64,000 bases of DNA, taken from an uncultured Leptospiraceae bacterium (GTDB lineage Bacteria > Spirochaetota > UBA4802 > UB4802). Made by a program: the position numbers and the translations under genes. Positions 18,979-42,583 of the stretch are shown piece by piece. A model generated the notes under the pieces. The model had not been told where the DNA came from and did not search any database. It worked only from the letters and a program-made list of their open reading frames with translations. The stretch lies in contig CAZVRB010000001.1 in assembly GCA_964629365.1 (NCBI GenBank), forward strand, positions 38,693 through 102,692, in the 5' to 3' direction. The number at the start of each line of letters is the position of its first letter. The stretch's first letter is position 1.

Positions 18979-20799
18979 TTACTTTCGTTTACGCAGGTTA
19001 TACTGCTTACTTCTTGAATCTTTCTGCATCATCTGGTAAGACTCCGAAGCCGCGTTCAGATCCTGTTCCTCTGAGGCCCTTTCCAGCCGTGACTGGTATT
19101 CAACTATATTAAGCACCTGTCGTTTCATCTCCCGTGATTTGTACTGTGAAAGTCCATCACGAACCACCTCGAGGTTTTCCTGGATTTTCGCCTTCGCGTC
19201 ATCAACCCTGCCCTTATCAACCAGGTCCATTGTTTCTTCCATCATGGAAGATGATACGAACATCTTGACGTCCTTCATAACCAGTGGATTCATATTGCGG
19301 GACACCAGTTTACTGTCAGCCGTTGATACAACATTCACCTTTTTACTTGAGCTTATCCTGCCTTCACCCTTTACCGTTTCATCATAGGTATATACCACCG
19401 TTGCAAGCACACCGGTGCTGATAGACTGCCTGGAAGGTATAAGTGCAAGCAGGGCCAGTTTTTTTTCTTCTGAGACCACGTCACCCATTTTAATGACTAC
19501 TCCATCATCTGTATCACTTGCCGTGTATCCGTATACCTTTTCAACCCGTGTACCATGTTCGGGTCGTATCTCAATACTGCAATTCTGTGCCACCACTGCC
19601 AGAAGCCCCTCCAGTTCATTGGAGAAAATTTCGGGAATCTTATCCGCCCTGTCAATGTAGTAATAAAAGGCGCTGCCGTACTCGGCAATACCGGTCATCA
19701 ACTTCTCGTTGAAATACTGCCCAACGCCGAATGTTGATATGGTAATGCCTTCTCCGGATCTCTGCCTGGCAAGCTGCTGTATCTGGCGGGGGTCGGTTAC
19801 CCCCACGTTGGCCAGCCCGTCAGATATCAGCAATACCCTGTTGACCTGGTTGCTTTTTAGTTTTTTCTTTACCTGGTTGCAGCCCTCCAGCATGCCACCG
19901 CTCAGGTTTGTTCCCCCTCCCGGTTCTATGGCATCAATAATTTTGTATATTTTATTCTTATCTGACACAACTTCCGGCTCAAGTGCCACGTCAACAACGT
20001 CATCATAGGTTACGATGGACAAGATGTCAGCTGACTCAAGGTTGCGCACAAGAAATTTCATGGCATCCCTGGCATAGTCCAGTTTTCCTCTGTCAGACAT
20101 GGAGCCGCTTCGATCGAGCACCACAGATATATTCAGCGGCAGTCTCTTCTCTGGACGTTCAGCTTTCCCCGCGAGAAACCCTGTTCTTACGTAAAAACTT
20201 CCGCTGTTGCTTTTGCTGATATACCTGTTCTGCGTCTGCAGCTCCAGCGTTACCAGCCCGGTATTCACTACGGGCCTGTCAGGTTCCACGTCACCGGAAA
20301 AATCTACGTAACTGCCGGTCAACGATTTCACCATCCTTCCGGATATGATATCCACCGCGTCAATGACACCGTCAACATCAGGGCTTCGCTGTTTATCGGC
20401 TGCCATGATCTTTCCGGAATTTACATCGATGAGGCGCACATCAATCCGCAGGTTCTCCCCCGTCCTGGCCACCGAACCGGTAAGCAGCTGCTTCGCTGCC
20501 AGCAGTTTGCCTATTTCGTTGGCATCACCCTCGGTCACCCCCGCGGCGGTGAGTCCTTTCTCTTCCAGTATTTTTTTCACCCGCTCACGCTCAAGCACCA
20601 CCATTTTGCCGCTCTGGGCCAGGTTGGTGGCTATCAGCTCGGGTACCGCAACGCTCAGGTAGGAGAGCGCGGAATCGCCGGTAACGTCCTTAAAGTCAAG
20701 TACCGCGATGGTATATTTTGACTGGGTGTGCCCATTATGGGTATGCACAAAGCTGACAACGGCAAGAAACATCACAGCAAATAATAATGCCCGTTTCAT
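18979..20799 (-). CDS. Secreted protein with CsgG-like N-terminal domain and von Willebrand factor A (VWA) domain
   Basis: 606 aa. Signal peptide. N-terminal YTIAVLDFKDVTGD...VVLERERVKKILEEKGL pattern is like the CsgG/LpoB-type fold. Central VWA domain with MIDAS (DRSGSM...TNLSGG...ISDG). C-terminal coiled coil. Confidence 0.6.
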   Translation of the reverse strand: MKRALLFAVMFLAVVSFVHTHNGHTQSKYTIAVLDFKDVTGDSALSYLSVAVPELIATNLAQSGKMVVLERERVKKILEEKGLTAAGVTEGDANEIGKLLAAKQLLTGSVARTGENLRIDVRLIDVNSGKIMAADKQRSPDVDGVIDAVDIISGRMVKSLTGSYVDFSGDVEPDRPVVNTGLVTLELQTQNRYISKSNSGSFYVRTGFLAGKAERPEKRLPLNISVVLDRSGSMSDRGKLDYARDAMKFLVRNLESADILSIVTYDDVVDVALEPEVVSDKNKIYKIIDAIEPGGGTNLSGGMLEGCNQVKKKLKSNQVNRVLLISDGLANVGVTDPRQIQQLARQRSGEGITISTFGVGQYFNEKLMTGIAEYGSAFYYYIDRADKIPEIFSNELEGLLAVVAQNCSIEIRPEHGTRVEKVYGYTASDTDDGVVIKMGDVVSEEKKLALLALIPSRQSISTGVLATVVYTYDETVKGEGRISSSKKVNVVSTADSKLVSRNMNPLVMKDVKMFVSSSMMEETMDLVDKGRVDDAKAKIQENLEVVRDGLSQYKSREMKRQVLNIVEYQSRLERASEEQDLNAASESYQMMQKDSRSKQYNLRKRK

Positions 20800-21031
20800 A
20801 TCCGCCCCCGGTTCGTGTATGAAGATTTTTGAATGTATTAAATATAGTCCTGTTTATTGGACAGGACAAACACTATTTTGTTCCGGAAATTTTTTAATTC
20901 TTTCTCTTTTAAGTGGTTAAAAGATTACCGCAAAGGGGGAATATTATTTATTTCTTCACGAATCTCTGCGCCCTTTGCGCCTTTGCGGTGAAAGCTAACA
21001 CCCCCACAAGTCCAGCCCCTGATTCACATAC

Positions 21032-23947
21032 TTAACGCATCAAACCCCGCGACTGCCTGCCTTCGGCCGCCCCCTCATACATGCCGGCAACACCGAAGTA
21101 GACCTGCGTTTCCCCGTACCGGTCAAAGCCGTGGGCAACACCCGCGAAACCGCTTATGTCATAGCCAAAGCCCAGGGTGATGCGTGTATGCAGTTCACCT
21201 CCCACGGAGGTTCTGAAATCAGCAAGGCCGCTGCTGCCTTTCCACACGTTGCCGTATTCCACGAATGGGACCGCCCAGACATCACGCAGCATCACCGGCA
21301 GTGTGCCGTATCCCAGGTCAAGCTGCAGCAGGGGCAGGCGGTATTCCAGGGCACCAACCACAAGCCTGTCCCCGTAGAACATGTCCGCCGCGTATCCCCG
21401 CATACCGAAGCGGTCCTCGCCGGTTTCCGCGGCGCCGGTCTTCCCCTTCTCGAACCGTCCCAGGTTGTAGGGGTCAAGGTAGCCAGGATTGTTGAACGAA
21501 GCCCCTCCCCGTCCCCGCAGCATGATGACGTTGTTGCGCCATATACCCGGAAGGTACCATGCAAGTTCACCCCGCACCTTCCCGTAATTCACGTCCGACC
21601 CCACACTGTCTGTATACCAGTCACCGATAACCATGAGCGTAACCCCGTCCTCCTGGCTTACCGAGTAGGAATACGAGGTAGCGCTGCTGAAGGAGTATCC
21701 CCCGTGAAAACCTGCCAGCACGTCCCGGTATTCGAAAACCCCCGCACCGCTGTAGTAGATGTCAGTCCAGGTCACCTCCCGGCTGTATGACAGGCTTAGC
21801 AGGTGCTGGTTGTAGAACTGCACGTACGGGATTGATATCCCTGCTTCAATGTTTCGTTCAAGTTCTCGTTTCAGGTTCTCTGAATGTTCTTCCTCCCACG
21901 GAAAGGTGTCCTCCCCGTAGAAAAGGGAGTTGTCACTGTAGAGTACCGTTATATCAGGATAGAGCCCGGCATAGGTATACTGCAGGGACACGTCCGCCCG
22001 CTTCTGCGCTACCGACGCTGCCCCGTACACCGTGTAGAAATGCCGGTAGAGGGTGTCCGCCCCCATGGTATAGAACCCGTACCAGCTGTCATAGCCGTCG
22101 GGGTATATTTCCTCCGAGTAAAGCACCGGCAGCCAGGCGGGGTTCACCAGCGAGTACAGGGGATTGTATCCGCCGGACCTGCCGCCGAACCTGTCCTGGT
22201 CATCGTATAACGCGGCTGTTCTGAAATACCCGTCGGCCGGTTCTGATGGTATTGTTCCCACCACTTCACCGTCGGCCGGTTGGGGAATTATGCCCACGTT
22301 GAACCCGTCCTTACCGTATGAAGCAACGGCGATACGTGACCCGTCCGGGGACACGTCCGGCCAGAACACCCCGCCAATTACGCTGGTGAGCTTTTTCACC
22401 TGCCCGGAGTTCAGATCAATATTGTAAAGATTGTACACCCCGTCACGGTCAGACACAAAAACCACCTTCCAGGCATCCGGGTACCAGTCAGCATGCATGC
22501 AGCTGTACGTCCCCCCTGTCAGCTGGCGTATGGTGTTATTCTGCATAGTATAAAGGAAGATATGACTGTATCCATTTGCGTCCCTGGCCGAGAACACTAT
22601 ACTCTTCCCGCCGGGAGATACCCTCACCCCCGAGATCTGCAGGGGCGTTTTCTCAATGAGCACCCGCGAAACCGAGTAGTCCTTTTCAAGCACCAGCAGG
22701 CTGTAGCGGTCGTCCTCAATCCGCACGCATGCCATTGTGCCGTCTGGGAAAGGGTCTACAGACTGGACCCGCAGGCCGCAGGTTTTGCGGTCATAGCCGT
22801 GGTCATAGGTGAACACGTCGTTATACATGAAGTAGGTTTTATAGTATTCCAGGTCGGCCAGCAGCACCCTGTCTTCACCCGTCACGCTGAGCCATGAGGG
22901 CATGTGTATGCTGGCAAGCTTCTCTTTTTCACCCGTATTCAGCGAAACGCGCATCAGTGCGGGAATATTGTAATTGGTCATCCTGGTGTAGTAGAGACTT
23001 TGTCCATCACTGCTGAAGCGGGGCATGGTGGTGAAATACCCGCTATGGGTCAGCACCCTGGGCTCCGTCACCCCCTTCTCCCTGATCTGGTCTGCCTGCC
23101 TGGTGTAACGCCGCACCGCCTCCTGCTGCCACTGCTCCCACAGGGCATAAAACGACCTGCCGTACACGTCACGGGCGTTTTTCTGCACCAGCCAGGGAAG
23201 CACGTTGTCGGCGTTCTCCCTGAACACCTCTTCGAACCGTCCATCCTTCTGGGTCTCCTGCAGGTAGTCCACGAAAAGTCCCCCGTACAGGTAGGGCACC
23301 ATCCCCGAAGGCCATTCCCTGGGGAAATACGAGGCCAGGTTTATTGATTTCAGGGAGTTCTCTTCAATTTCAGTCCGCATCACCATGTCAGTATAATTGC
23401 TGTTCACCCTCCCGTATGGATACTCAAGGGATTCACGGTATACCGGGTACCCTTCAAGATTCCACATGGGAAGGAACATGTTGGGGAAACACACCCGGCC
23501 CAGGGTATATCTTGTGGCTTCGGGAATACCGTCAATAATATCAAGGTTGAACACGTGGCTGTACTCGTGAATGAACACCAGCTCCATCCAGTCATCATAA
23601 TTACCAATAGAACTGTCAGCTTCGGGGCGGACGATAAAAAGCTGCACCCGGTTATAAGGCACCGGTATGGTAAACCCGTTGGGCTGATCGGTGTTGTCAA
23701 CCAGCACCACGTCGGTTCGCCAGTACGGCTCCCACCCTGTGGCCTGCACCAGCTGCCGGTGCACCTTCTCTGCGATGGGTACAAGCCGCCGTGCATGGTC
23801 TTCAAGCCCCTGGTGATAGTGTATCCAGAAATGCTCTGTCCTGATAGACTTCCAGTCAAGTTCAGGATGGAACATGAATGCCGCATCACCAATGCAGGGT
23901 ATAATTAATATTATAAGGAAGAATATAGAATGCAGAATCTTTTTCAT
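21032..23947 (-). CDS. Large secreted protein: HEXXH motif region, TolB-like PD40 beta-propeller repeats, and C-terminal Omp85/BamA-like beta-barrel-like domain
   Basis: 971 aa. Signal peptide. IHEYSH (HEXXH) near residue 130. PD40-like repeats (FSSDGQSLYY, VSPGGKSIVFS, VSPDGSRIAVASY). C-terminal ~350 aa is Y/G/S-rich with alternating amphipathic pattern and an RGY...G...ALEYRLPL segment resembling the Omp85 barrel signature. High GC. Confidence 0.5.
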   Translation of the reverse strand: MKKILHSIFFLIILIIPCIGDAAFMFHPELDWKSIRTEHFWIHYHQGLEDHARRLVPIAEKVHRQLVQATGWEPYWRTDVVLVDNTDQPNGFTIPVPYNRVQLFIVRPEADSSIGNYDDWMELVFIHEYSHVFNLDIIDGIPEATRYTLGRVCFPNMFLPMWNLEGYPVYRESLEYPYGRVNSNYTDMVMRTEIEENSLKSINLASYFPREWPSGMVPYLYGGLFVDYLQETQKDGRFEEVFRENADNVLPWLVQKNARDVYGRSFYALWEQWQQEAVRRYTRQADQIREKGVTEPRVLTHSGYFTTMPRFSSDGQSLYYTRMTNYNIPALMRVSLNTGEKEKLASIHMPSWLSVTGEDRVLLADLEYYKTYFMYNDVFTYDHGYDRKTCGLRVQSVDPFPDGTMACVRIEDDRYSLLVLEKDYSVSRVLIEKTPLQISGVRVSPGGKSIVFSARDANGYSHIFLYTMQNNTIRQLTGGTYSCMHADWYPDAWKVVFVSDRDGVYNLYNIDLNSGQVKKLTSVIGGVFWPDVSPDGSRIAVASYGKDGFNVGIIPQPADGEVVGTIPSEPADGYFRTAALYDDQDRFGGRSGGYNPLYSLVNPAWLPVLYSEEIYPDGYDSWYGFYTMGADTLYRHFYTVYGAASVAQKRADVSLQYTYAGLYPDITVLYSDNSLFYGEDTFPWEEEHSENLKRELERNIEAGISIPYVQFYNQHLLSLSYSREVTWTDIYYSGAGVFEYRDVLAGFHGGYSFSSATSYSYSVSQEDGVTLMVIGDWYTDSVGSDVNYGKVRGELAWYLPGIWRNNVIMLRGRGGASFNNPGYLDPYNLGRFEKGKTGAAETGEDRFGMRGYAADMFYGDRLVVGALEYRLPLLQLDLGYGTLPVMLRDVWAVPFVEYGNVWKGSSGLADFRTSVGGELHTRITLGFGYDISGFAGVAHGFDRYGETQVYFGVAGMYEGAAEGRQSRGLMR

Positions 23948-24029
23948 AACTTCACCACAAATTTTTTGGTATACTTATAAATTCGCATCATAGTAACATG
24001 CTGCTCAACGGGCCCCCTACATCCCCCCG

Positions 24030-26135
24030 TCACTTCACCCCCAGCCTGTCAGTAAGGATCAGCCGTCCCCACTGCGCCGCCAGGTGACCATTCCCCTTCC
24101 GTAGAATCACAATAATCCCCTTCTCATCCTTTCCACCCAGAAACATGCCGTATCCGAGGGGGAGGTTGGTACCGTCGATTACGGTTGAAGTTTTCCCCCA
24201 CAGGCCTGCATCAACAGGCTGCTGCTGCATGTCCCTGGTCAACCCAACGGGGTCCTTCCAGTTACACTCCGGCCCTGCAGGATGTATCGGCAGCGCCGCG
24301 GTACCTTCGGTGAAGGTGGCGGCAAGTGCCCTCCGTATCCTCACAAGACCTTCCCCGTCAATCTCTTCACGAAGCCGGTTCACCCCGTCATTACTGGTAG
24401 ACACCCCGCTCACCAGCATGGCAATTTTCACCAGGTCACCCACCCGCATGCTCACCTGGAAATCAAGCCCGGCGCATCGTTTTGACCACTCAGCCCTGCC
24501 ATTTACCGCCGAGAATGCATGCAGAAGCCCAAGCCTCTGGCACAACGTCGCGTAAAAACTGTTAAAATCATTAAACGAAATCTCACCCGCAAGTGAAGCA
24601 AAATACATGTTGCACGAATGTGACAGTGCAGGGAACAGGCTCATCCTCCCATGCCCTTCCGGTTTCCAGCAGCCGTCGCTTAGAATGGATTGGGCATCTC
24701 CCCGTGACCCGCAGGTAAAATGATATCCATCCACAAGGTCGGGCCGATGGCTCACAAGGTACAGCCCCATGATGATCTTCCACAATGATCCCGGCGGCAC
24801 CACCCGCTCTGCCATGGCCGGATGGCTCTGCCCCGTTACCTGCCCGCTGCGCATATCAAATGTCATATAGGACAGGTTGGGCGACCCCGCCATTTCCCCT
24901 TCTACCGCTTTCAGGGAAAGTTCCCTGTAATAATGTGTGAGTATCTCGTAACGCGAATAACCCATCGCAGCCAACGCAAGCGCCCCGTGCTGGCACAGGC
25001 CTACGTTATGCCCAAGCCCCCTGCCGCTAAAACGCAAAGCGGGGCCGTCATCCCTGTTCACCATCTCAAGGCGGTAATTATTGCTCTTAAGAAAATTCCA
25101 GCCCATTACCCGGTTAATCTTCAGCCTGAAAGTTTCCGGCGCCAGGGTCAACGAGCCCGAATCCCCTTTCATCATAACAACCGGCACCCCCGAATCATAT
25201 TCAACAGCAGGGGGGGGACGTGAAAGCTTCTCATCATCCAGGATGTCCCGCACCTGTACCGGTGAAAGCATTCGTGTCCACCCGTTATCACCTGCATGAC
25301 AGAGCACCATTCCTGTTCTGTAAAGAATATCCTTCACCGGCGGGAAACCTCTCTCCTCCGCTCCAAACACACCCATGTCCATGGTATGCCCCCCGCAACG
25401 AGAATGAAAGAGCAGGTGGCCGGCCAGGTTCTGGTGATCTATATACCATCTATCATCGTGCAGGAGGGATGGCTTCCCCGTCCTCCCCCTGTAGACCTGG
25501 CAATGGGTAAGGTCGCAGAACCGGTAAGGATGTCCGGGGTGATTATCCTGTATGTACCGGCACCGGGCCAGGATCACGTGGGCAAGGGCTGCCAACGCTT
25601 CACGGTGTATGGCAGGCCTGTTGCCGTATTCGGCACGGGCACTGTCAGATGCATATCGCGTTGGGTCTTCATAAACCACGGTAACAGGATCTTCATTCTT
25701 ATCAAGGGACAGGTATAGCGGAAGGGGATAGGTTCGCTTTACACCTGCCAGGTTCAGGGCAAAGGACTGCCCACCGGGCGGGGCTTCGATTTCGCATTCA
25801 ACCGGCAGGCCAACCGGCACATCATCCATGGTCACATGCCAGCCACGGTGAAAGCTCAGCTGCAGCCGCTGCACAGGAATGTTACTGCCTGCCCCCTCCC
25901 CGTACAGCCTGGTTCCAGCTGGGAAGGTGCACACGATCTGCCCCCTGCCCTCTTCGCGCATTTGGCGAAAGTGCTTCGAGAGCACCTGTATACCCACCCT
26001 TTCTTCGCCGGCAAAAAGCATTGCCGGCGAAAGAACACACAGCAGAAGAAGTATCCGGGTAATGCTGCTGGTATTATTCCTTCCTGTCAATTTCGATGGA
26101 ACCCGGCGGCGCCCATCCCTGTATGGTTGGTTCAT
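24030..26135 (-). CDS. Fusion protein: SpoIID/LytB domain plus penicillin-binding transpeptidase-like domain
   Basis: 701 aa. Signal peptide. CDLTHCQVYRG and GRGLGHNVGLCQHGALALA motifs are SpoIID/LytB hallmarks. C-terminal half has SXXK (PPGSLWK), SXN (SHSCN) and KTG-like (GKTST) motifs. The listed ATG start overlaps the A2M stop by 62 nt (an in-frame TTG would give a 17-nt overlap). Confidence 0.6.
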   Translation of the reverse strand: MNQPYRDGRRRVPSKLTGRNNTSSITRILLLLCVLSPAMLFAGEERVGIQVLSKHFRQMREEGRGQIVCTFPAGTRLYGEGAGSNIPVQRLQLSFHRGWHVTMDDVPVGLPVECEIEAPPGGQSFALNLAGVKRTYPLPLYLSLDKNEDPVTVVYEDPTRYASDSARAEYGNRPAIHREALAALAHVILARCRYIQDNHPGHPYRFCDLTHCQVYRGRTGKPSLLHDDRWYIDHQNLAGHLLFHSRCGGHTMDMGVFGAEERGFPPVKDILYRTGMVLCHAGDNGWTRMLSPVQVRDILDDEKLSRPPPAVEYDSGVPVVMMKGDSGSLTLAPETFRLKINRVMGWNFLKSNNYRLEMVNRDDGPALRFSGRGLGHNVGLCQHGALALAAMGYSRYEILTHYYRELSLKAVEGEMAGSPNLSYMTFDMRSGQVTGQSHPAMAERVVPPGSLWKIIMGLYLVSHRPDLVDGYHFTCGSRGDAQSILSDGCWKPEGHGRMSLFPALSHSCNMYFASLAGEISFNDFNSFYATLCQRLGLLHAFSAVNGRAEWSKRCAGLDFQVSMRVGDLVKIAMLVSGVSTSNDGVNRLREEIDGEGLVRIRRALAATFTEGTAALPIHPAGPECNWKDPVGLTRDMQQQPVDAGLWGKTSTVIDGTNLPLGYGMFLGGKDEKGIIVILRKGNGHLAAQWGRLILTDRLGVK

Positions 26136-29100
26136 ACATGCACTCCATCCTGGATGGTTTCACACTGAAAGTGCCCGGCAGCTCTGCCCGGATTATATAG
26201 GCAATCTCGTAGTATTTCCCCTTCTGAAGGCTGTTGAAGAAAAACACCATCCTGTTATCCCAGCGTTCGGCATTCACGTACGGCTGATAGCCGTCGTAGG
26301 CGTTTTTATCCACCACCTCGAAACCAGCCGGAAGGTAATCTTCAAGCACCAGGTATTCGAAATCATCACTTGCCACGAACCTCACCTTTACCAGCAGTTC
26401 ATCTCCTATCTTCAATTCTCTCTTATCATCAATATTCTGCGGTACAAGGTACTCGTTATGATGAATGTCCTTCACCCTGGTTACGTATGAGAATGAACGG
26501 GCAATCTGTATTCCATTGGACAGGGCATTCACGCTTCGTTTTTCGGATTTAAAGAGTGACAGCACACCGGCATCTTTGAATTTCAGGGTACCGTTGATCA
26601 CCACCTCGTAACTGAGATCCCTGCCGGCATCCCCCGCGGCTTCCACCGTAAATTCGGGAACCGTTCTTCCCCCTTCAAGGGGCAGTGTCCTGGTAAAGTT
26701 CTTCATGTCAATCTCACCGCTCAGATCATAGGTAAACTCGGTCAGATGCTTTCCGTCAAGGGTGAAGGCTACCTTTCCGCTGGTTTTCGGTGCGGCACCG
26801 ATACTGTCAATATAGTCACCCAGGGCAAATATTACCGTGGCGGTTTCCTTGGTAGAGTTCCATGCGCCACCCTTCCCTCTTTTGGTCAACGAACGCACCG
26901 CCCTTGACACCAGTGAAGTAGTGTCACCCGTTTCAACGAGAGCTGAAAGCACGTGTGCAGTAATCTCAGCACGTCCTCCCGGCCATCCCCATTGCTGGGT
27001 TCCCACGCTGGGCCAGTATATCCCCCGTCCGTCAAGTTCCTGTTTCTCTTTTAACGCGGCCAGGAACTCCTTTAAATCCTTTTTGAGATCCTGTTTTCTT
27101 TCATTTTTCAGTTTTTTTATGCCATCAGCCTTTACCAGGGCACGCACAATATATGCCAACTGGTAGGGGTTCATTGCAAGCTTGTCTGTGCAATACTCGT
27201 AGGCCTTTTGGTCCCATTTTCCATGAAGGGCGTACACGTACAGCAGGTAGGCCATCGCGTCATGTGACACCTGCCGGTATTTCAGCATCCTGGCAACGGC
27301 AGATACACCCTTATCGATAGCATTTTTACTTATGGCATACCCGTTCTTCTGCGCCAGCATAAAACCACTCAGAACGTAACCGGTTACAAAACCATTACCC
27401 CGGTCGCCATACCACCATCCCCACGAACCGTCACTGTTCTGCAGCTGCTGCAGCCGTGATATCCCCGAATCAACCTTGGCATGCAGTTCCTTTGTGGATT
27501 TCTCTGAAAGCAATGCCCCGTACCCCTGCCCCTGGGCAAGCCTGTACACCGCCATTGCCGGCAGAAACCTGTTTATGGTCTGCTCAATACAGCCATAGGG
27601 ATATTGCATAAGAAATTCTGTGGCCCGAAGCATCTGTATTACCGGTGAAGGGTTCACCTGTATGGTAACCGACTCGGGTACGAAATCAAAATCAGTGCTG
27701 TCTTTCAACGGCTGTATAACAATTTTGCTGTTATTTGCCATGTCTCCCGTTCCGTACAGCTTGTAGCGCACCCCCCGCCGCTCTACGGGCACATGCAGGC
27801 GCAGTGCGTCGCTGGCTGAGGCGTCCGCAATTGCGGTATATTCCATGGTGAGCTTTTGTGTATCATCCGGAATAATGGTTGTATAATATTCCCTGGAAGA
27901 CCCGAATCCAGGCAGGCTGATCTTCACCGGGTTATCGGCCACAGCCTTCTTCCCGTTGATCTTCATGGTGGTGGTAACCTCTTTCAAACCCCGTTTAGTA
28001 TTGCTGTTGACAATACCGATGATACCCATGGTATCACCTTCAACGGCAAACCGCGGTCGTCCGATTCGGGCGATCAGGTCTTGTGTTACCTGGAATTCTG
28101 ATTTATCTTCTCCAACCCGTCCCTCACGATCATGCCCCCTGGCGGTAAGCCTCCAGACGGTAAGGTTGTCGGGTAACGTGAAGGTGACCGAAGCCTTTCC
28201 GGCGGCATCGGTTCGTATCTTTCCCTTCCAGAAGGCAGTATCTTCAAACTTCTCCCTGATCTTTACCTTCCCCTCTTTTGCGGCACCGGCAAGAATGTGT
28301 ATGGGATAGGAGTAGCTTGTCAACACCCAGTTTGATATCTTTGTATAGAAGAAATTTTGCATTTTCGGCGTGTGATCGGGCCGGATCTGGTATATAGCCT
28401 CGTCAACAGCGGCAAGGGACAGGTCGGCTTCAAGGGGGTTCCCTTTCTTATCTGTTACCTTGATATGTACCGTTGCCTTTTCTCCAGGTTTGTATACCTT
28501 TTTATCATTTTTCATCTCGATGGAAAGACCGGTTTCTGCAACCGGAAGTTCAATATCAACCCTGCTGGTATACAGGGCCCGTTTTCTCTGCATGGTTGCG
28601 GTAAGGTAAAAGTTTGGTGCGTATGCAGGTTTCACATCAAATGTTACCGGTGTGATATTCCCTTTCATTTGTACCACCTTTGAGTGATACACGTCACGCC
28701 CCTCAAGTGTCAGGCACACGTAGGAGTCGGTGAACCTGCTTTTCACCAGGCAGGTGATCTTACCGGGTTCCTTCAAGCTTGTCTTGTCTACCGTAAGTTC
28801 AAGGTTCTTCAACTTTGACTTTATCTCTCCACCCTGCCTGCTGTATATCCAGATGATCCTGTTGGCGTTGATCTTGTTGTTATAACGGTCGGTACTTTCG
28901 GCAACCAGGTCAAACTCGCCGTAGTATGAAAACTTTTTGGGCAGTTCTACTGTCGCCCGGCCTTTTTTGTCAGTAGTGATCTTCTTTGAAAACAGCGGAC
29001 GCTTTTCATGCACATATACACGCTGCAGGGGTTTCCACACGTAGCGGTAAAGATCCAGGTTTACCCCGGCACGCATGGGATCACCCGTATGGGACAGGGT

Positions 29101-31434
29101 TTGAATCTCAATTTTCTTTTTCTCATTATCCGCGTAAAAATTCTGATCAGGGTTTATCTTGATATAATATTCCCCCCGGCCAACCTTTACCGAGTTGCTC
29201 GAAGTGATGCTGATATTAGACTTGTCCATCACGGTTGCCTCGAGGGTGATCTTACGATCATAGGGGTAGTTACCACTGTCAAAGCGCAATACGGCCACCC
29301 CTTCATCGTTTAGATATTTCTCACCTTCAAGGCGTATACGGTTGTATGATTCACGTGAAGGATAATCCTCTTCCCACCAGTAGGTGGTATCGGTATCACG
29401 CATCCTGGTTTCATAAAAGCGATACCGCACCAGCCCGTTTTTCAGCGGGGCACCAAAAAAGTATTTCGTCTCAACCTTAAATTCAACGGTATCACCGTTG
29501 GTGAAGTAGGGTTTTGAAGGGGTGATGTCTATTTTAAATTCCGGTTTTCGGTATTGTTCCATGTAGTAACGCCCGGCGGCATACAGGTTTTCCTTCGTGG
29601 GACCAACCCGTATATCATATTCACCAAGCCGTGCATCTGCTGCCATGACGATCTTACCATGCCAGGTTCCCCACTGGTCAAGGGTGATCTGGCCCTCTTC
29701 CACCGTACTGTTAAAATCCCTGTTGATTATCCTGTAATGCAGCTTCTGCCCGTTGAGCGGCATAAATCTACGCTTTCTTTCCTTGCCAACCACCTTGTAA
29801 AACACCGTGTCACCCGCCCTGTATACCGGCCTGTCAGTATAGATGAAGTACTTGTTCTTCTCACGGTCGAAGGCTGATGGCGATCCGGTGCTGCACAGGG
29901 CGTAGCTGCCGTCTTCTCCTATAACCAGCACAGTATAATGTTTCCTGGATTTCATCCTGTAGGTAAATACACCGTTGCTGTCAGTCTGCCCTTTTTTTAA
30001 TATCTTTACAGGCAGGTCTTCTATCCGTTTGGGGGGCTTGTAGGGATGTGTAGAATACCTGTACTGTTTCTTCTCGGGTGTTGAGTCAAATACCACCACC
30101 GATGCACCCTTGATGGGTTTGTTTTCTGCAAGATGGGTCACATAGGTAAACATGGAATATTGCGATCGCTTTGCCACCACCCCCACCGATGTAACAGAGA
30201 AGAACTTACGGCTGATCATTTTACCTGCACCCTCAACTTCAATGCAATAGCCCCCGGTTGGAAGCTGGTCTTTCAATTCCAGTGACTGGTAGCGCCATTC
30301 GTAGGGTTTGAAATTGTGAATAGGTTCACTCCATTCTGTGAACACCTTGAATTTCTCTTTTGCCGGATTGATGGTATCCGGATCAACGTGCCCCTGCAAA
30401 AATGTATTCAGCGGCACCTGGTATACCCGCACTTTTACCGATTCAAGGCGAAAGGTGCGCAGGTTGAATGAAAGTTTATTACCCGGCACAAAGGTATACC
30501 TGTATGAGTAGACGCTTAATGCAGGATCTTTCGGGGTCACATCGTAATCAAAATCTTTCTTTCTCTCACCTTCTGTTATCTTGAAGGAAGAGGTTTCCAT
30601 TGTATCAAATCCCCGGTGATGAATTCGCAGCTTGTAATTACCTGGTTTCAGGTCTTCAAGTACATAAGTTCCATCATGGAAAGTACTGGCCGAGTAGGTT
30701 ACCCTGCCAACCGCCTGAACGTCCACGTTTATGGCAGGGGCGTTTAGTCCCTTGATGCTGATTGTACCGGATATGGAAGCCGGTTCATATACTACCATGG
30801 GAAGGGTGAAGGTTTCACCATTCTTAATATACTTGATGCGGGCAGTTTCGGTAATATATCCCGGTTTACTGAAGGTTGCCATGTATCTGCCCGCGGGAAG
30901 CTTGTTAAAGCTGTAACTGCCATCATCACCTGTTGACTGTATGAAAGGCTTGTTACCCTGTCCATAACCGGAAGACGTCTGCTGCAGTTTTACCTGCACC
31001 CCTTGTACCGGTTTACCGTCACCTCCCCGCACTACACCCGTGAGAATGCCTTCTCTCTGTAAGTATATAGTTCTCTTTCCGGCTTCCACTTTTTCGGTAG
31101 TCTTATATGTGACGTATCCGTCTGCTACAACTTCAATTATATATCGTACCTGCGGTATAAAGTTTTCAATTTTGAAATACCCACCGTTATCTGTTTTTTC
31201 AAGGTAGTAGCCCACTCCCATCTGTGCGTTCTTCAGCTCCACCGTGGCCCCTGCAACTGCATCTTTGTTCTGTGCATCCAGAACCCGTCCTTTCACCACA
31301 TATTCTTTTTGCAGTTTTTTATCGTCAGGACCGGTATACACAACTGTTCCGTCCTCCATGTGCTTTTTCCCGGTGGTAGTACACCCCGTAATCACCAGCA
31401 GCATGAGAGCTATACACACAATAACCTTCTTCAT
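26074..31434 (-). CDS. Bacterial alpha-2-macroglobulin family lipoprotein with intact thioester motif
   Basis: 1786 aa. Lipoprotein signal (LLVITGC). Multiple MG/CarbopepD_reg-like domains. Thioester GCIEQ (QYPYGCIEQTINRF). Helical TED-like region and C-terminal receptor-binding-like domain. Confidence 0.85.
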   Translation of the reverse strand: MKKVIVCIALMLLVITGCTTTGKKHMEDGTVVYTGPDDKKLQKEYVVKGRVLDAQNKDAVAGATVELKNAQMGVGYYLEKTDNGGYFKIENFIPQVRYIIEVVADGYVTYKTTEKVEAGKRTIYLQREGILTGVVRGGDGKPVQGVQVKLQQTSSGYGQGNKPFIQSTGDDGSYSFNKLPAGRYMATFSKPGYITETARIKYIKNGETFTLPMVVYEPASISGTISIKGLNAPAINVDVQAVGRVTYSASTFHDGTYVLEDLKPGNYKLRIHHRGFDTMETSSFKITEGERKKDFDYDVTPKDPALSVYSYRYTFVPGNKLSFNLRTFRLESVKVRVYQVPLNTFLQGHVDPDTINPAKEKFKVFTEWSEPIHNFKPYEWRYQSLELKDQLPTGGYCIEVEGAGKMISRKFFSVTSVGVVAKRSQYSMFTYVTHLAENKPIKGASVVVFDSTPEKKQYRYSTHPYKPPKRIEDLPVKILKKGQTDSNGVFTYRMKSRKHYTVLVIGEDGSYALCSTGSPSAFDREKNKYFIYTDRPVYRAGDTVFYKVVGKERKRRFMPLNGQKLHYRIINRDFNSTVEEGQITLDQWGTWHGKIVMAADARLGEYDIRVGPTKENLYAAGRYYMEQYRKPEFKIDITPSKPYFTNGDTVEFKVETKYFFGAPLKNGLVRYRFYETRMRDTDTTYWWEEDYPSRESYNRIRLEGEKYLNDEGVAVLRFDSGNYPYDRKITLEATVMDKSNISITSSNSVKVGRGEYYIKINPDQNFYADNEKKKIEIQTLSHTGDPMRAGVNLDLYRYVWKPLQRVYVHEKRPLFSKKITTDKKGRATVELPKKFSYYGEFDLVAESTDRYNNKINANRIIWIYSRQGGEIKSKLKNLELTVDKTSLKEPGKITCLVKSRFTDSYVCLTLEGRDVYHSKVVQMKGNITPVTFDVKPAYAPNFYLTATMQRKRALYTSRVDIELPVAETGLSIEMKNDKKVYKPGEKATVHIKVTDKKGNPLEADLSLAAVDEAIYQIRPDHTPKMQNFFYTKISNWVLTSYSYPIHILAGAAKEGKVKIREKFEDTAFWKGKIRTDAAGKASVTFTLPDNLTVWRLTARGHDREGRVGEDKSEFQVTQDLIARIGRPRFAVEGDTMGIIGIVNSNTKRGLKEVTTTMKINGKKAVADNPVKISLPGFGSSREYYTTIIPDDTQKLTMEYTAIADASASDALRLHVPVERRGVRYKLYGTGDMANNSKIVIQPLKDSTDFDFVPESVTIQVNPSPVIQMLRATEFLMQYPYGCIEQTINRFLPAMAVYRLAQGQGYGALLSEKSTKELHAKVDSGISRLQQLQNSDGSWGWWYGDRGNGFVTGYVLSGFMLAQKNGYAISKNAIDKGVSAVARMLKYRQVSHDAMAYLLYVYALHGKWDQKAYEYCTDKLAMNPYQLAYIVRALVKADGIKKLKNERKQDLKKDLKEFLAALKEKQELDGRGIYWPSVGTQQWGWPGGRAEITAHVLSALVETGDTTSLVSRAVRSLTKRGKGGAWNSTKETATVIFALGDYIDSIGAAPKTSGKVAFTLDGKHLTEFTYDLSGEIDMKNFTRTLPLEGGRTVPEFTVEAAGDAGRDLSYEVVINGTLKFKDAGVLSLFKSEKRSVNALSNGIQIARSFSYVTRVKDIHHNEYLVPQNIDDKRELKIGDELLVKVRFVASDDFEYLVLEDYLPAGFEVVDKNAYDGYQPYVNAERWDNRMVFFFNSLQKGKYYEIAYIIRAELPGTFSVKPSRMECMYEPTIQGWAPPGSIEIDRKE

Positions 31435-31465
31435 TTGTTTACTCCTTCATATGTTTGGTGGCGCG

Positions 31466-32095
31466 TTACGGTTCTGCCCTGAGGGTAACACACCTGAACG
31501 CGAACAGCTGCACAACATCGTATGGCGAAAGTATCTTTTTCAAATACTCTATGCTTTTAATTTCGGAGGGGACAATGACAAGAATGCTGCCATCCCCGCA
31601 ATGAGCCTTTATACCAAAACGGCTTATATCAAGAGTTTCAAGTGAAGCAACCGGGTACAGACCTGATGCCACTGTCAGTATAATACTGCTTTTCTCAAAC
31701 TCATGGGCCTCCAGCGGCCTGTGCCGATTGTCCCGTGTCAATGCCCCTTTTAAATAATCACCCAGAACACTTTCAGCGTTACCAGTTGCATGATGAAAGG
31801 CGCCGTAACAGCCCCTAACCCTGCCATTATATACCAGTGTAATAAAAAGCCCGAACCTGCCATAAAAATCAGGAAGTGTGCACAAAAAATGTACATTACC
31901 ATCTTGACCCTGCAGGTGTCCGGCACCCTTTTGCCTGAGCCAGTGAAACAAACATTTCTCTTCTGTTGACCCCCTGATTATACTCCAGCTTTCCAGGTCG
32001 TCACCTGGCTGCGACATCACCGGGAGGCATACAATAACAATTGTCACCACCATTAGGGTAACAACAATCAATACCTGTGCTACGGTTCGTATCAT
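31466..32095 (-). CDS. Membrane-anchored AMMECR1-like domain protein (tentative)
   Basis: 209 aa. N-terminal TM helix. GLFITLVYNGRVRGCYGAF resembles the AMMECR1 LRGCIG core motif. Confidence 0.35.
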   Translation of the reverse strand: MIRTVAQVLIVVTLMVVTIVIVCLPVMSQPGDDLESWSIIRGSTEEKCLFHWLRQKGAGHLQGQDGNVHFLCTLPDFYGRFGLFITLVYNGRVRGCYGAFHHATGNAESVLGDYLKGALTRDNRHRPLEAHEFEKSSIILTVASGLYPVASLETLDISRFGIKAHCGDGSILVIVPSEIKSIEYLKKILSPYDVVQLFAFRCVTLRAEP

Positions 32096-32814
32096 CGCAA
32101 TCGAACCGGCGGATAGTAATCCTTGTACATGAGAAAGGACTCAATAACTTTACCGTTTTTCATCTTGTTTCTATACACATATACCGACATGCCGGGGCGT
32201 ATCCCGTCATCTGAATCAAGAGGAAGGGGCACATCCTCTTCTTCTGTCACCAGCTCGTATGTATGTTTCAGGGGTTGGGCAGCCCGTATAGTAATTGCAA
32301 GGCTGCTGTTATTCATCACTGCGCTGATATATAGTGGCTGGTCATGGGGATTCCTGATGCGCAGATCCTTCTTCCCGTACTTGATTGTGGCATCCAGGCC
32401 CAGGGGTACATAGGTGACCGGCTGATAATGCCTGTGACGCTCCACGATGGCACACCCTGCCATAAGCATGGCATTAAAAAGTGTTGATGAGACCTGGCAT
32501 AATCCTCCACCCGGCTCAAGGACAACCTCGTCCCTGTATAATACGTTCCCATTGGCGAACCCGTTGGCCGCAGAGCCTTCGCCAACAATTCCATTAAACG
32601 AGAGCACCGATCCCGCTTGCAGCACAAAGCCCTCAAGCCTGTCACAGGCTATTGCAATATTTTTTTTCACTTCCGGGGTCTGGTCTTTCACTGACGTGGA
32701 GAAGTTTGCCACTACCTGCAATCCAGGCATGGTATACCCTGGCAGGCAAAGACATCCGGCCAGGATAATTGATGGAATTATTCTTCTTTTCTTCATTATA
32801 TATACCATGCGCAA
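32092..32814 (-). CDS. VanW-like protein
   Basis: 240 aa with signal peptide and a VanW-family core (LEPGGGLCQVSSTLFNA). Stop overlaps the downstream gene by 4 nt. Confidence 0.65.
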   Translation of the reverse strand: MRMVYIMKKRRIIPSIILAGCLCLPGYTMPGLQVVANFSTSVKDQTPEVKKNIAIACDRLEGFVLQAGSVLSFNGIVGEGSAANGFANGNVLYRDEVVLEPGGGLCQVSSTLFNAMLMAGCAIVERHRHYQPVTYVPLGLDATIKYGKKDLRIRNPHDQPLYISAVMNNSSLAITIRAAQPLKHTYELVTEEEDVPLPLDSDDGIRPGMSVYVYRNKMKNGKVIESFLMYKDYYPPVRLR

Positions 32815-32927
32815 GATATCATTAGTATAACACCGGCTTTATAATGGGCAATACTGTACGCATACGCCGGAAGTTGGTCAAATACTATTTACCGTTAATT
32901 TGTTGACCCCTCTATATTCAAGGTGTA

Positions 32928-33554
32928 TTGTCGCCTGATCACAAGAATCTATCGGGGCTTACAATGAAAAAATGGGACATACAGGAACGCAAAGAACTCT
33001 TTAACAGGCGGATTTTCTCCATCGACGACCTGCGTTGCTATCATCCTGAAAAAGATGTAACACATGATTTCTATGTTCTGAACAATCCTGACTGGATCAA
33101 TATCGTAGTTCTTACCCACGATGAAAGGCTGGTTCTAGTAAAACAGCATCGGCTGGGTACCGATGAGATAACTATAGAAACCGTAGCGGGGCTGATGGAT
33201 GATGGAGAACTGCCTGAAATATCCGCGCAAAGGGAATTACTTGAAGAAACAGGTTACCATGCAGGCGAAATGATCCTTATGAAAAAGCTTTCTGCCAACC
33301 CCGCCATTATGTCTAACCACATATACTTCTACCTCGCACTGAATTCAAAGAAAATCGCTGATCAGTCCCTTGACATTGCCGAGGATATCGATGTTATTAC
33401 CGTTTCTCAACATGAAGCACTTGAAATGGTATCAGAGGGCACCATCAACCATACTATCATCGTTACGGCATTAAGTCTTTTCTTTCTGTCTCCGTATTCA
33501 CATATACAATCAGATAAACTACGGGAGCTATTTTCATGCTCACACAGCGGTTAA
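32928..33554 (+). CDS. NUDIX hydrolase (ADP-ribose pyrophosphatase-like)
   Basis: Nudix box GLMDDGELPEISAQRELLEETGY. Real start may be the ATG at 32964 (MKKWDIQ). Confidence 0.8.
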   Translation: MSPDHKNLSGLTMKKWDIQERKELFNRRIFSIDDLRCYHPEKDVTHDFYVLNNPDWINIVVLTHDERLVLVKQHRLGTDEITIETVAGLMDDGELPEISAQRELLEETGYHAGEMILMKKLSANPAIMSNHIYFYLALNSKKIADQSLDIAEDIDVITVSQHEALEMVSEGTINHTIIVTALSLFFLSPYSHIQSDKLRELFSCSHSG

Positions 33555-33982
33555 CCAGGTACCTTTTCTGCATCATCATTCTTCTGCTTACAGATATCCT
33601 CTCTGCTGCCGACTACAGGTGCATTATTTCTTATCATCCCCTGCCATTTTATTACAGCCAGTGGTCAATCGAGGTATACAGGGAAAATGAGAACTATTAT
33701 ATCGCTTCCAGCAATATTCCTGATCTTAAGCGAAAGGCATCCCTCTCCCGTGAAGCATACATTGATTTCATTATGAATATGAATAAAAAAGGAATATGGC
33801 GCCTCAACGACTATTATCAACCCGGTTCAAAGAACCCGTATTACCTTGTTTCAGTCACTGATAAAGAATTCTCCAATACCTTCAAAATCGAGGATAATGC
33901 TTCATATCCCGGGTCGAAATATCATTACAAAGAAATAGTGCGTATATTTAAAAATTATGCTGACATCTATCTGGAAAAATAA
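33536..33982 (+). CDS. Hypothetical secreted protein
   Basis: 148 aa with N-terminal hydrophobic signal-like segment. Tyr/Asn-rich. No recognised family. Confidence 0.4.
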   Translation: MLTQRLTRYLFCIIILLLTDILSAADYRCIISYHPLPFYYSQWSIEVYRENENYYIASSNIPDLKRKASLSREAYIDFIMNMNKKGIWRLNDYYQPGSKNPYYLVSVTDKEFSNTFKIEDNASYPGSKYHYKEIVRIFKNYADIYLEK

Positions 33983-34121
33983 TCTCTATTGTGTAGAAGT
34001 ACAGAAAAATCGAATTGACAAAACGCTGCCTTGTTTAGTAATATAAGCGAAATACCAATGTGTGCATTTCTGTTCCCACACAGAATCCGCAATAAAATTA
34101 AATAAACCCCGGAGGTTATAT

Positions 34122-35189
34122 ATGTTAAAGAGAATTTTTATTCTTTCTCTTTGTTGTTTCATTGCATTGGCTTTTTCCACCGTATCATTTTCACAGGAAG
34201 AGCCCGCAGAAACAGAAGAAACGATGGAGGACGCAGCCGTAACTCCTGATACAGAAAGTCCAGAATCAGAAGAGCTCACAAAAGAAGAAGTTATTGCAAC
34301 CGATGCTGAAAAAGCAGCCTCGCATTTTGATGGACTAAATCATTATGTTAATTCCAAGGTCATGTTTGAACTTTCTGTAAAGGACAATCTTCTTGCTGAC
34401 AAGGTTATGTATAAGATTAATGGTGATGAAGAGATGGTCTATGAATCTCCCTTCCGACTTACAGAAGAAGGTAAGCATAACATCAGCTATTATGGTGTCG
34501 ACCGGGTTGGTAACAAGGAAGACATGAAATACTTCAAGGTTGTGGTTGATAACACCGCACCGGAAGTATCAGTCACCGCATCACAGCCTGTTGTGAAATC
34601 AGGCGAAAAGTATTACGCATCACAGGCGTTTTCTTTTTCCGTTGACGCCAAGGATAATGCTGCAGGTGTAAAGCAGGTTGAATATTCATTTGATGGAAAC
34701 ACCTACAACGAGTATGTGGCTCCATTCGCATTTGACTCAACCGGCGATTCATCATTAAAGTTAAAAGCTAAGGATAACGTACTCAATACTACAGAAAAAT
34801 ATTCACTTAAAGTATTGGATGAAAACGGTAACCTGCAGGAACTGGAAGGCGATTCGGTAGCCATTTATGTTGACAATACCGCACCAGTTGTTGAAATCAA
34901 GGCTGATAAAGAATTCATCGACAAAGACGGCAAGAAAGTTGCTTCCGTAGATTACACATATGAAGTAACTGCAAATGACACCGAATCAGGTGTTGCCGAT
35001 CTTTTAGTCAGGCTTGATGGAAAGGGTAACTTTGTAAAATACACAGCTCCGATACAGTTTTCCAAAAACGGTGAACACCTGATCGAAGCCAAGTCTGTTG
35101 ACAAGGTTGGAAACACATCAGCTGTTAAACTTCTTTCAGTGTATGTTGATGTTATTCCTCCTGAAACTATGATCAGGACAGTTGATTAA
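34122..35189 (+). CDS. Secreted protein with tandem Ig-like (VDNTAP-type) repeat domains
   Basis: Start set at ATG 34122, preceded by a GGAGG RBS. Signal peptide. Acidic linker. Two repeats beginning VVVDNTAPEVSV and YVDNTAPVVEI, typical of bacterial Ig-like surface domains. Confidence 0.6.
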   Translation: MLKRIFILSLCCFIALAFSTVSFSQEEPAETEETMEDAAVTPDTESPESEELTKEEVIATDAEKAASHFDGLNHYVNSKVMFELSVKDNLLADKVMYKINGDEEMVYESPFRLTEEGKHNISYYGVDRVGNKEDMKYFKVVVDNTAPEVSVTASQPVVKSGEKYYASQAFSFSVDAKDNAAGVKQVEYSFDGNTYNEYVAPFAFDSTGDSSLKLKAKDNVLNTTEKYSLKVLDENGNLQELEGDSVAIYVDNTAPVVEIKADKEFIDKDGKKVASVDYTYEVTANDTESGVADLLVRLDGKGNFVKYTAPIQFSKNGEHLIEAKSVDKVGNTSAVKLLSVYVDVIPPETMIRTVD

Positions 35190-35215
35190 ACCGGTTTTTA
35201 AAAAATAAATATTTC

Positions 35216-35252
35216 ATATGGTGAGCGTATTTACGCTCACCATATTTATTAT
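35216..35252 (+). terminator. Rho-independent terminator (14-bp perfect stem ATATGGTGAGCGTA/TACGCTCACCATAT, 3-nt loop, T-rich tail)
   Basis: Read directly, 27 nt downstream of the Ig-like repeat gene stop. Confidence 0.7.
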
Positions 35253-35275
35253 CACAGGTACCACAGGAGCAGTTC

Positions 35276-35593
35276 ATGAATATACAACTGAGGGAAAAGA
35301 AAAAAAGTCTAATCTTTGACATTAATGAAGATATTAACAGGGAAAACGCTGAAGAACTCGAAGCATTCATCAATAACAATATCTCAACAGAAAAGGATGT
35401 AGTAATCAACCTGGAAAAAGTTACCTACATAAACAGCTTTACCCTTGGCACATTTATTAAGATACAAAATGATCTTAAAGAAAAAGAAACCTCTCTTTAT
35501 TTTCTTCATGTTAATCCATCAATAAAAGCTCTTTTCAAAGTTTCAGGAGTTCTGCAGTATTTTTCACTTATCAATGATGAAAAAGATATATAG
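35276..35593 (+). CDS. STAS domain protein (anti-sigma factor antagonist, SpoIIAA-like)
   Basis: 105 aa with a STAS fold pattern (INLEKVTYINSFTLGTFIKI...). It lacks an obvious partner kinase here. Confidence 0.7.
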   Translation: MNIQLREKKKSLIFDINEDINRENAEELEAFINNNISTEKDVVINLEKVTYINSFTLGTFIKIQNDLKEKETSLYFLHVNPSIKALFKVSGVLQYFSLINDEKDI

Positions 35594-35596
35594 TAG

Positions 35597-37233: not shown

Positions 37234-37260
37234 AAGAATTTAATTAGACAAGTAAAATGT

Positions 37261-38668: not shown

Positions 38669-38766
38669 TTTTACACCTTATCGCTTATTAAATTCATCAT
38701 TCTAACAACACTATATAGTATTGAATCTGAAGCTTGTCAAATCAATTCTATGATTCTTCCAGTATA

Positions 38767-40679: not shown

Positions 40680-40690
40680 TCAACACACAA

Positions 40691-42580: not shown

Positions 42581-42583
42581 TTC

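Follow-up and report, generated by a model that had tools for sequence, protein, structure and literature searches.

Genes and base composition of the GC-rich stretch

The 64-kb stretch of spirochaete DNA analysed here (the window) contains a GC-rich interval, at 20940-26140, that covers two genes lying downstream of a gene for an alpha-2-macroglobulin (A2M). One of the two encodes a fusion of a SpoIID-like domain with a transpeptidase (SpoIID-TP), and the other an outer-membrane protein that joins a TolB-like propeller to an Omp85-type barrel (TolB/Omp85). The interval had been singled out in a previous reading made from the letters of the DNA alone (hereafter the sequence-only reading), which proposed that at least these two genes, and possibly the A2M gene, were acquired horizontally. 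The labels given there to the three genes (A2M, SpoIID-TP, and Omp85-like) proved correct by domain, motif, and structure matches. All genes of the block are read from the minus strand, and their surroundings are those of a core chromosomal region, with flhA/flhB/fliPQR/fliMN/motAB on one side and genes for a NUDIX protein, an Ig-domain protein, pdxA, and ATP synthase on the other. The main features are listed below, with GC3 denoting the GC content of third codon positions.

19671-26190, no strand: core GC-rich segment, GC 0.544, with steps at 19670/19671 and 26190/26191 by likelihood segmentation
21032-23947, minus strand: TolB/Omp85 gene, encoding a 971-aa outer-membrane protein (Pfam and NCBIfam matches, invariant columns, AlphaFold2 (AF2) model, Foldseek, synteny); GC 0.555, GC3 0.694
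24030-26135, minus strand: SpoIID-TP gene, encoding a 701-aa membrane-anchored fusion of a SpoIID-like domain and a transpeptidase (TP) like that of class B penicillin-binding proteins (PBPs) (partial NCBIfam matches, PDB, AF2/Foldseek); GC 0.560, GC3 0.618
26074-31434, minus strand: A2M gene, encoding a type I lipoprotein alpha-2-macroglobulin of 1786 aa (Pfam, motif, lipobox); GC 0.484, GC3 0.552; the upper shoulder of the GC hump
18979-20799, minus strand: VWA gene, encoding a 606-aa CsgG/TolB_N-like plus VWA lipoprotein (Pfam); the 5′ third, at GC 0.56-0.57, is the lower shoulder of the hump
31466-32095, minus strand: AMMECR1-like gene (Pfam), in the 5′ part of a VanW-AMMECR1-A2M-SpoIID/TP cassette
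32092-32814, minus strand: VanW-like gene (Pfam), in the 5′ part of the same cassette

The GC content of 20940-26140 is 0.554, compared with 0.4325 for the whole window, and the most GC-rich 5.2-kb segment begins at 21001 with a value of 0.555 (mean of all 5.2-kb segments 0.435, sd 0.049). The sequence-only reading had put the 60-nt lines of this interval at 57-62% GC; the high GC content was real, but that range was somewhat too high, as the lines have a mean of 0.555 (sd 0.08) and no more than about one third of them fall within it. Its comparison values were about right for the flagellar block, the A2M gene, and the region at 36-45 kb, which have GC contents of 0.441, 0.483, and 0.363, respectively. 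The best single-island model in the likelihood segmentation is 19041-32760 (GC 0.511, against 0.411 outside; log-likelihood ratio 217). This interval coincides with the whole gene block from VWA to VanW and the hump therefore has shoulders. Its upper edge is sharp and lies at the A2M stop codon, and on the lower side the hump extends over the 5′ third of the VWA gene.

Codon usage follows the same pattern. Outside the block, GC3 averages 0.413 in 40 genes (sd 0.065, maximum 0.519), so that the values listed above for TolB/Omp85, SpoIID-TP, and A2M correspond to z-scores of 4.4, 3.2, and 2.2. G/C-ending codons are raised for nearly every amino acid in both GC-rich genes, and the shift extends to codon positions 1 and 2. 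The two genes clearly differ from the atp and flagellar genes in relative synonymous codon usage, with correlations of -0.04 (TolB/Omp85) and 0.20 (SpoIID-TP) to the former and, for the two genes, 0.40 and 0.59 to the latter. We considered whether amino acid composition alone was a sufficient cause and rejected it: the proteins are somewhat rich in glycine, alanine, arginine, and proline (0.26 and 0.31, compared with 0.20-0.24), but when the same two proteins are written with the codon choice of the flanks, their genes reach a GC content of only 0.453 and 0.490, against 0.556 and 0.562 in reality. Protein composition explains at most one third of the GC excess. Three of the 10 shadow open reading frames (ORFs) of at least 150 aa in the window fall inside the GC-rich stretch. 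The stretch seen by the sequence-only reading is accordingly real, with GC steps at its edges and deviant codon usage within.

The tetranucleotide check proposed with that reading gave a different outcome. In a GC-normalised tetranucleotide (TETRA) analysis, the island has a correlation of r = 0.699, compared with 0.714 +/- 0.043 for all 5.2-kb segments, and ranks 18th of 46. It is ordinary for the window, and we therefore rejected a foreign oligonucleotide signature as evidence of acquisition.

Gene order, descent, and allele exchange among relatives

Four close relatives carry the locus: L005 (GCA_018399855.1), L004 (JGI Ga0272443_10000034), L001 (GCA_964486725.1), and L008 (Ga0102938_10003599). 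In all four, the order is VanW, AMMECR1, A2M, SpoIID-TP, TolB/Omp85, VWA, MptE, and MotAB, both GC-rich genes occupy the same site, and the GC hump is present, with a GC3 of 0.59-0.72 in the two genes. Two further contigs, L101 and L102, show part of the same arrangement. As the GC-rich state is common, in place, to at least three species-level lineages, it must be old. The A2M proteins of the close relatives are 95-97.5% identical to that of the window. As side observations, a CNNM/CorC gene is inserted between TolB/Omp85 and VWA in L001 (15361-16686), and past VWA in the same genome (19079 onward) an unrelated 1875-aa ORF replaces the MptE-flagellar genes.

More distant relatives, in which A2M is 50-56% identical, keep VanW-AMMECR1-A2M-(LapA)-SpoIID/TP together in other chromosomal contexts, and the VanW-AMMECR1-A2M-SpoIID/TP cassette is retained in L006, L007, L011, and L014-L019. 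SpoIID-TP is the next gene after A2M in 10 of the 10 more distant loci in which the contig runs past A2M and a homologue was detected. SpoIID-TP is therefore the conserved partner of thioester A2M across the order. Homologues of both GC-rich proteins are found almost exclusively in metagenome-assembled genomes (MAGs) of Spirochaetota, and the species representatives go under the labels Spirochaetes, Leptospiraceae, or Leptospirales bacterium.

The descent of TolB/Omp85 can be followed through a low-GC sister group of seven species, in which the protein is 44-46% identical to that of the window and MotA is 76-79% identical. The gene order there is Ig-protein, NUDIX, TolB/Omp85, MptE, MotA, MotB, FliL, and FliM, and the A2M cassette and the VWA gene are absent from that site in all seven. 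In a neighbour-joining (NJ) tree of TolB/Omp85, the window clade is sister to this syntenic group, with a bootstrap support of 90/100, or 98/100 with Dayhoff-6 recoding. The synteny between NUDIX and MptE-MotAB, together with the tree, identifies TolB/Omp85 as a resident positional orthologue, contrary to the idea that the Omp85-like gene had been acquired. We also considered that it might be a xenologue from a high-GC Spirochaetota group, to which its raw identity is slightly higher (47.0% vs 45.7%), but given its grouping in the tree we rejected this at that scale.

Compared with the sister group, the site has gained the A2M cassette and VWA as lineage-specific additions, and in this respect the sequence-only reading is supported. 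The history of horizontal transfer of bacterial A2Ms, which had been cited in support and which concerns metazoans, has no bearing here. Among the three genes, A2M deviates least.

These observations speak to the simplest form of the horizontal proposal, a classical genomic island in which the two genes, and perhaps A2M as well, were brought in recently by a mobile element from a remote GC-rich source. The deviant base composition and codon usage are as expected of a genomic island, and the cassette and VWA gene were indeed added at the site. However, a search of the 64-kb window gave no tRNA or tmRNA, repeats flanking the block are only at chance level (16-29 nt), and no integrase, transposase, conjugation, or phage genes came up when 37 of the 46 main window ORFs were scanned with Pfam and NCBIfam. 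There is also no presence/absence polymorphism, both genes being at the same site in all close relatives found. Given in addition the native TETRA signature, the positional orthology of TolB/Omp85, whose sister is a syntenic low-GC group, and the nearly exclusive occurrence of homologues of both proteins in Spirochaetota, we regard such an insertion as very improbable.

What the relatives do reveal is exchange of alleles in place. The window and L004 are ~95% identical at the nucleotide level in the flanks, but only 57-74% across ~24.05-26.10 kb; the breakpoints are the A2M stop codon, where identity drops within 50 nt, and the spacer after SpoIID-TP. A second replacement separates the window from L001, with 90-93% identity in the flanks and 61-63% at 22.0-22.9 kb. 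The protein identities to the window show the same.

L004: flanks 93-99.7% (o182 82%), A2M 97.5%, SpoIID-TP 65%, TolB/Omp85 90.5%
L001: flanks 83-92%, A2M 95%, SpoIID-TP 84%, TolB/Omp85 74%

The rank order of the protein identities of the two genes is thus discordant among the relatives. Synonymous divergence (dS) reaches 1.27 for SpoIID-TP between the window and L004 and 1.54 for TolB/Omp85 between the window and L001, compared with 0.08-0.48 in the flanks. Local hypermutation was tried as a cause and rejected, as dS between the window and L005 is only 0.15 and 0.22 in the two GC-rich genes and equals that of the flanks; these are therefore discrete replacements rather than the product of a high local mutation rate. 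The ratio of non-synonymous to synonymous divergence (dN/dS) is 0.12-0.24 in the two genes (0.12-0.15 for TolB/Omp85), which indicates purifying selection on functional genes. Along 19-36 kb, quartet topologies alternate such that each of the three dominates some 500-nt bins, and bursts of lineage-specific singletons (105-156 per 500 nt) occur inside the GC-rich island only. Even L008, which is ~99.9% identical to the window overall, has its substitutions clustered at 20.5-21.0 kb (25), 21.5-22.0 kb (15), and 22.5-23.0 kb (7), and the N-terminus of its VWA protein is 85% identical to that of the window; these clusters look like small recent recombination tracts. With discrete tracts, saturated dS, and sharp breakpoints, the alignments show the SpoIID-TP and TolB/Omp85 pair to be a hot spot of homologous allele replacement, with which the GC hump coincides. 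The proposal of horizontal acquisition consequently holds in a modified form: exchange has occurred at exactly these genes, but not by way of a foreign or mobile island.

Origin of the GC hump

One source of such alleles is represented by L102, a 4.7-kb microbial-mat contig on which SpoIID-TP lies between the tail of A2M and the start of TolB/Omp85. GC3 is 0.779 in the A2M tail of L102, compared with 0.575 in the window group, and a saturated dS of 1.6-1.7 separates the two. Its SpoIID-TP, by contrast, is near the L004 allele (dS 0.33, 88% nucleotide identity, GC3 0.72 in both), whereas the A2M of L004 is window-like. It follows that L004 acquired this allele from a GC-richer relative that resembles L102 and has the genes in the same order. 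The window, L008, L005, L101, and, in part, L001 have the window-type SpoIID-TP allele in common. As the dS of this allele (0.15-0.44) matches that of A2M (0.18-0.47), the allele has been resident from the time at which those species-level lineages separated.

To follow the direction of change, third-position changes were polarised on the window and L005 branches, yielding ancestral GC3 and equilibrium GC3 (GC3*) as follows.

Island: GC-to-AT 103, AT-to-GC 52, ancestral GC3 0.71, GC3* 0.55 (95% CI 0.47-0.62)
A2M: GC-to-AT 104, AT-to-GC 77, ancestral GC3 0.56, GC3* 0.49 (95% CI 0.42-0.56)
Flanks: GC-to-AT 121, AT-to-GC 91, ancestral GC3 0.47, GC3* 0.40 (95% CI 0.34-0.46)

The island is undergoing a net loss of GC, as expected of sequence that arrived GC-richer, or once was. 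A rough calculation, in which a GC3 of 0.72-0.78 relaxes toward 0.40 over ~0.2 substitutions per site, gives 0.65-0.69, compared with the observed 0.62-0.69, and is compatible with import before the group diversified.

On balance, the GC hump probably represents an old introgression from GC-richer sister lineages, by homologous allele exchange at resident envelope genes, that is now slowly losing GC. The course of events would be as follows. An uncultured organism, which we place as a Leptospirales-like member of Spirochaetota, would have gained a periplasmic-defence cassette (VanW, AMMECR1, thioester A2M, and the SpoIID plus transpeptidase fusion) and a VWA gene, which came to flank a resident outer-membrane gene, TolB/Omp85, sitting between NUDIX and the MptE-MotAB flagellar genes. 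Whole-gene or part-gene alleles of SpoIID-TP and TolB/Omp85 are replaced by homologous recombination with related lineages that share the gene order, at least one of which is far GC-richer (GC3 0.72-0.78). The window's own alleles, common to at least three species-level lineages, would be older imports of the same kind or survivors of a GC-richer ancestor, and their GC content would be declining slowly toward a lower host equilibrium. Of these two, we infer import.

Several points weigh against this account. It is based on only five to seven related sequences, all of them metagenomic. No donor was found for the window-type alleles, whose nearest homologues outside the clade are 37-49% identical. 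The TolB/Omp85 tree fits purely vertical descent equally well, and the native TETRA signature, whilst fitting a close donor or great age, fits equally with no transfer at all. In addition, GC3* is higher in the island (0.55) than in the flanks (0.40), and relaxation to the host value predicts a ratio of GC-to-AT over AT-to-GC changes of ~3.5:1, whereas 2:1 was observed. This weaker loss leaves room for a GC-favouring bias tied to recombination, or for parsimony error.

A bias of this kind is central to one alternative, GC-biased gene conversion, in which frequent recombination and a repair bias raised GC3 in situ in the absence of GC-rich donors. According to Lassalle et al. 2015 (PMC4450053), recombining bacterial genes generally have higher GC3, and here too the GC3-rich genes show the most evidence of recombination, although the effect is much larger and the balance of changes in these genes is at present a loss of GC. 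GC3 tracks third-position divergence between genomes (Spearman rho 0.53 in 100-codon windows), the recombination tracts concentrate in the island, and GC3* falls from the island through A2M to the flanks. Nevertheless, GC3 is raised here by +0.2 to +0.28, much more than the few points by which gene conversion raises it in bacteria. The present GC3 of the island, 0.71, also lies outside the confidence interval of its GC3*, codon positions 1 and 2 have shifted as well, and for one allele a GC-rich donor-like lineage exists. We consider gene conversion in situ unlikely to be the main cause of the hump.

The other alternative is that the GC content, or a codon preference, is retained from a GC-richer ancestor. 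In this case, the genome has been drifting to AT, with AT-ending codons favoured chiefly in well-expressed genes, and two envelope genes, proposed to be weakly expressed, lag behind or stay high in GC3. Consistent with this, GC3 rises by gene class from atp (0.37) and other genes (0.38) through flagellar genes (0.45), VWA/VanW/AMMECR1 (0.54), and A2M (0.55) to the two island genes (0.62-0.69), and in every class the current GC3 exceeds GC3*. The TETRA signature is native, and GC is very labile in the order, with the GC3 of TolB/Omp85 ranging from 0.28 to 0.95 across species. On the other hand, neutral drift should reduce synonymous GC equally fast in neighbouring genes. In nine other lineages, the GC3 of SpoIID-TP does not exceed that of A2M, and the order is reversed in the window group; in the seven sister species, TolB/Omp85 has a GC3 just 0.01-0.08 above that of its own flanks. 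The discrete alleles with saturated dS are also left unexplained. We give retained GC a slightly smaller chance than gene conversion of accounting for the hump.

With introgression by allele exchange as the favoured explanation, the locus carries a caveat for those who search for genomic islands: a strong step in GC and codon usage can mark allele replacement, at a resident locus, between relatives of differing GC content. Synteny, dS profiles, and the tetranucleotide signature separate this from a foreign insertion. A close parallel is provided by the mosaic pbp genes of Streptococcus and Neisseria, whose alleles derive from inter-species homologous recombination. As in that system, sharply divergent blocks with defined breakpoints lie in otherwise near-identical chromosomes, the donors are related and have the same gene order, and one of the affected genes encodes a penicillin-binding-type transpeptidase. 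Unlike in that system, the strong GC difference between donor and recipient makes the exchange appear as a compositional island, the replacement of a whole gene stops exactly at gene boundaries, antibiotic selection is not implied, and a donor-like lineage was found for the L004 allele but no donor for the window's own.

Encoded proteins, spacers, and minor features

SpoIID-TP and the terminal domains of the 971-aa protein both called for structure prediction, since a Pfam scan of SpoIID-TP gave no match and a PDB sequence search with the N- and C-terminal domains of the 971-aa protein gave none either. The motifs SxxK (S450/K453), SxN (S507-N509), and KT(S) (K648-T649) of SpoIID-TP are invariant across 25 homologues, and its PDB sequence matches are SpoIID and PBPs. 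Its AF2 model has a predicted local distance difference test score (pLDDT) of 85.3, and Foldseek matches it to SpoIID (5i1t, target TM-score (TMt) 0.62) and to the TP domains of PBPs (TMt 0.55-0.65).

The 971-aa protein consists of a signal peptide, a helical domain with an HExxH motif, a TolB-like beta-propeller (~aa 300-565), and an Omp85-type barrel (~aa 600-957). The motif (H127 E128 H131) is invariant across 21 homologues, as are glutamates downstream of it (residues 165-172). The Pfam match to Omp85 is weak (23.6 bits, just below the cut-off of 24.0), but the AF2 model (pLDDT 83.6) matches TolB and the BamA/TamA barrels in Foldseek, the barrels at a probability of 1.00 (TMt 0.57 for the TamA barrel 8us4). 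The motif suggests that this protein may be an outer-membrane-anchored metalloprotease, encoded beside a protease inhibitor. Like members of the Omp85 superfamily, it has a predicted C-terminal barrel, of the 16-stranded type, that superposes on those of BamA and TamA; unlike them, it has no POTRA domains, the periplasmic part being formed by the propeller and the HExxH helical domain. Some distant homologues have Peptidase_MA_2 matches, and MAGs labelled Nitrospirota, Myxococcota/Deltaproteobacteria, Planctomycetota, and others also encode the HExxH/TolB/Omp85 architecture, with 26-32% identity (loci L062, L066-L068, and L071-L100). This apparently represents a widespread, uncharacterised family of outer-membrane proteins.

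A2M has the thioester motif CIEQ at residue 1282 and is therefore of type I. It begins with the lipoprotein N-terminus MKKVIVCIALMLLVITGC and contains the Pfam domains MG2, BRD, A2M, TED, and bMG10. Ahead of the macroglobulin domains are three CarboxypepD_reg-like domains (residues ~45-210), an N-terminal extension that is kept in relatives. The start of SpoIID-TP overlaps the A2M stop by 62 nt (26074-26135), and the overlap is kept in L001, L004, and L005. In L004, the upstream recombination breakpoint falls here as well, and in more distant relatives a small LapA-domain gene takes the place of the overlap.

The pairing is reminiscent of the periplasmic defence-and-repair pair formed by type I bacterial A2M and PBP1c, exemplified by E. 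coli YfhM-PbpC and Salmonella Sa-A2M (PMC5764988), of which we regard it as a variant. In both cases, a lipoprotein A2M with a CxEQ thioester is directly followed by an enzyme that acts on peptidoglycan and has a penicillin-binding transpeptidase domain (here with the 62-nt overlap), and the adjacency is kept across many genomes. The partner differs, however, in that a SpoIID-like domain of lytic-transglycosylase type is fused to the transpeptidase, with no glycosyltransferase match in Pfam, NCBIfam, PDB, or Foldseek searches, and the cassette adds VanW-like and AMMECR1-like genes. A literature search joining macroglobulin and SpoIID found only a single paper, on an unrelated subject. From the conserved catalytic motifs, protease trapping and peptidoglycan repair are putative functions of the A2M/SpoIID-TP pair. 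The presence in Leptospirales-like Spirochaetota of a thioester A2M paired with a SpoIID plus transpeptidase fusion, rather than with PBP1c, broadens the idea of defence and repair by A2M and a peptidoglycan enzyme, and none of the findings overturns current understanding.

A speculative possibility, to which we assign a low likelihood, is that SpoIID-TP, the HExxH/TolB/Omp85 protein, and thioester A2M form an undescribed envelope-defence locus, the two most exposed parts of which are kept diverse by recurrent capture of alleles from sister lineages. Diversifying or balancing selection would then be exerted by phage, predators, or secreted enzymes, and the GC hump would be the footprint of exchange across a GC gradient.

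Two spacers adjoin the GC-rich genes.

20800-21031, minus strand: spacer after the TolB/Omp85 gene; repeat, hairpin, and indel seen by comparison with relatives
23948-24029, minus strand: spacer between the TolB/Omp85 and SpoIID-TP genes; downstream breakpoint of the allele replaced in L004

In the first, a terminator-like hairpin (20847-20867) precedes a T-rich run, and the spacer differs by a 26-nt indel from that of L004 and L005. A small tandem duplication, placed by the sequence-only reading at about 20955-20985, does exist, but is located at 20972-20987 and consists of two 8-nt copies of CCTTTGCG, which make up one arm of an imperfect inverted repeat in the spacer (partner at 20927-20941). 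The duplication is kept, with indels, in relatives. We considered it as an att-like or structured element and rejected this, as it folds no better than shuffled sequences (z-score 0.01) and is unremarkable.

In the second spacer, a palindromic element that extends over ~180 nt more in L004 and L005 is represented in the window by a single arm (GGGGGGATGTAGGGGGCCC). The additional ~180 nt in L004 (12104-12367) and L005 (12002-12268) are bounded by the inverted arms CCCCCTAAATCCCCCCGAGGGGGACTT ... GGGGGGATTTAGGGGG and have the look of a miniature inverted-repeat transposable element (MITE) or a repetitive extragenic palindromic (REP) element. In L101, the same spacer (3630-4145) holds a DUF559-like ORF. 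Comparison of these genomes points to the spacer between the two GC-rich genes as an insertion hot spot.

Lastly, the window contains an AT-rich segment at 32761-45480, with a GC content of 0.369, whose downward deviation is as large as the upward one of the GC-rich stretch. It includes a gene for a GAF-GGDEF protein (40691-42580) with a GC3 of 0.28. A 736-aa ORF at 42584-44794 is without a Pfam match and has an extreme codon-position skew (GC1 0.58, GC2 0.25, and GC3 0.26).

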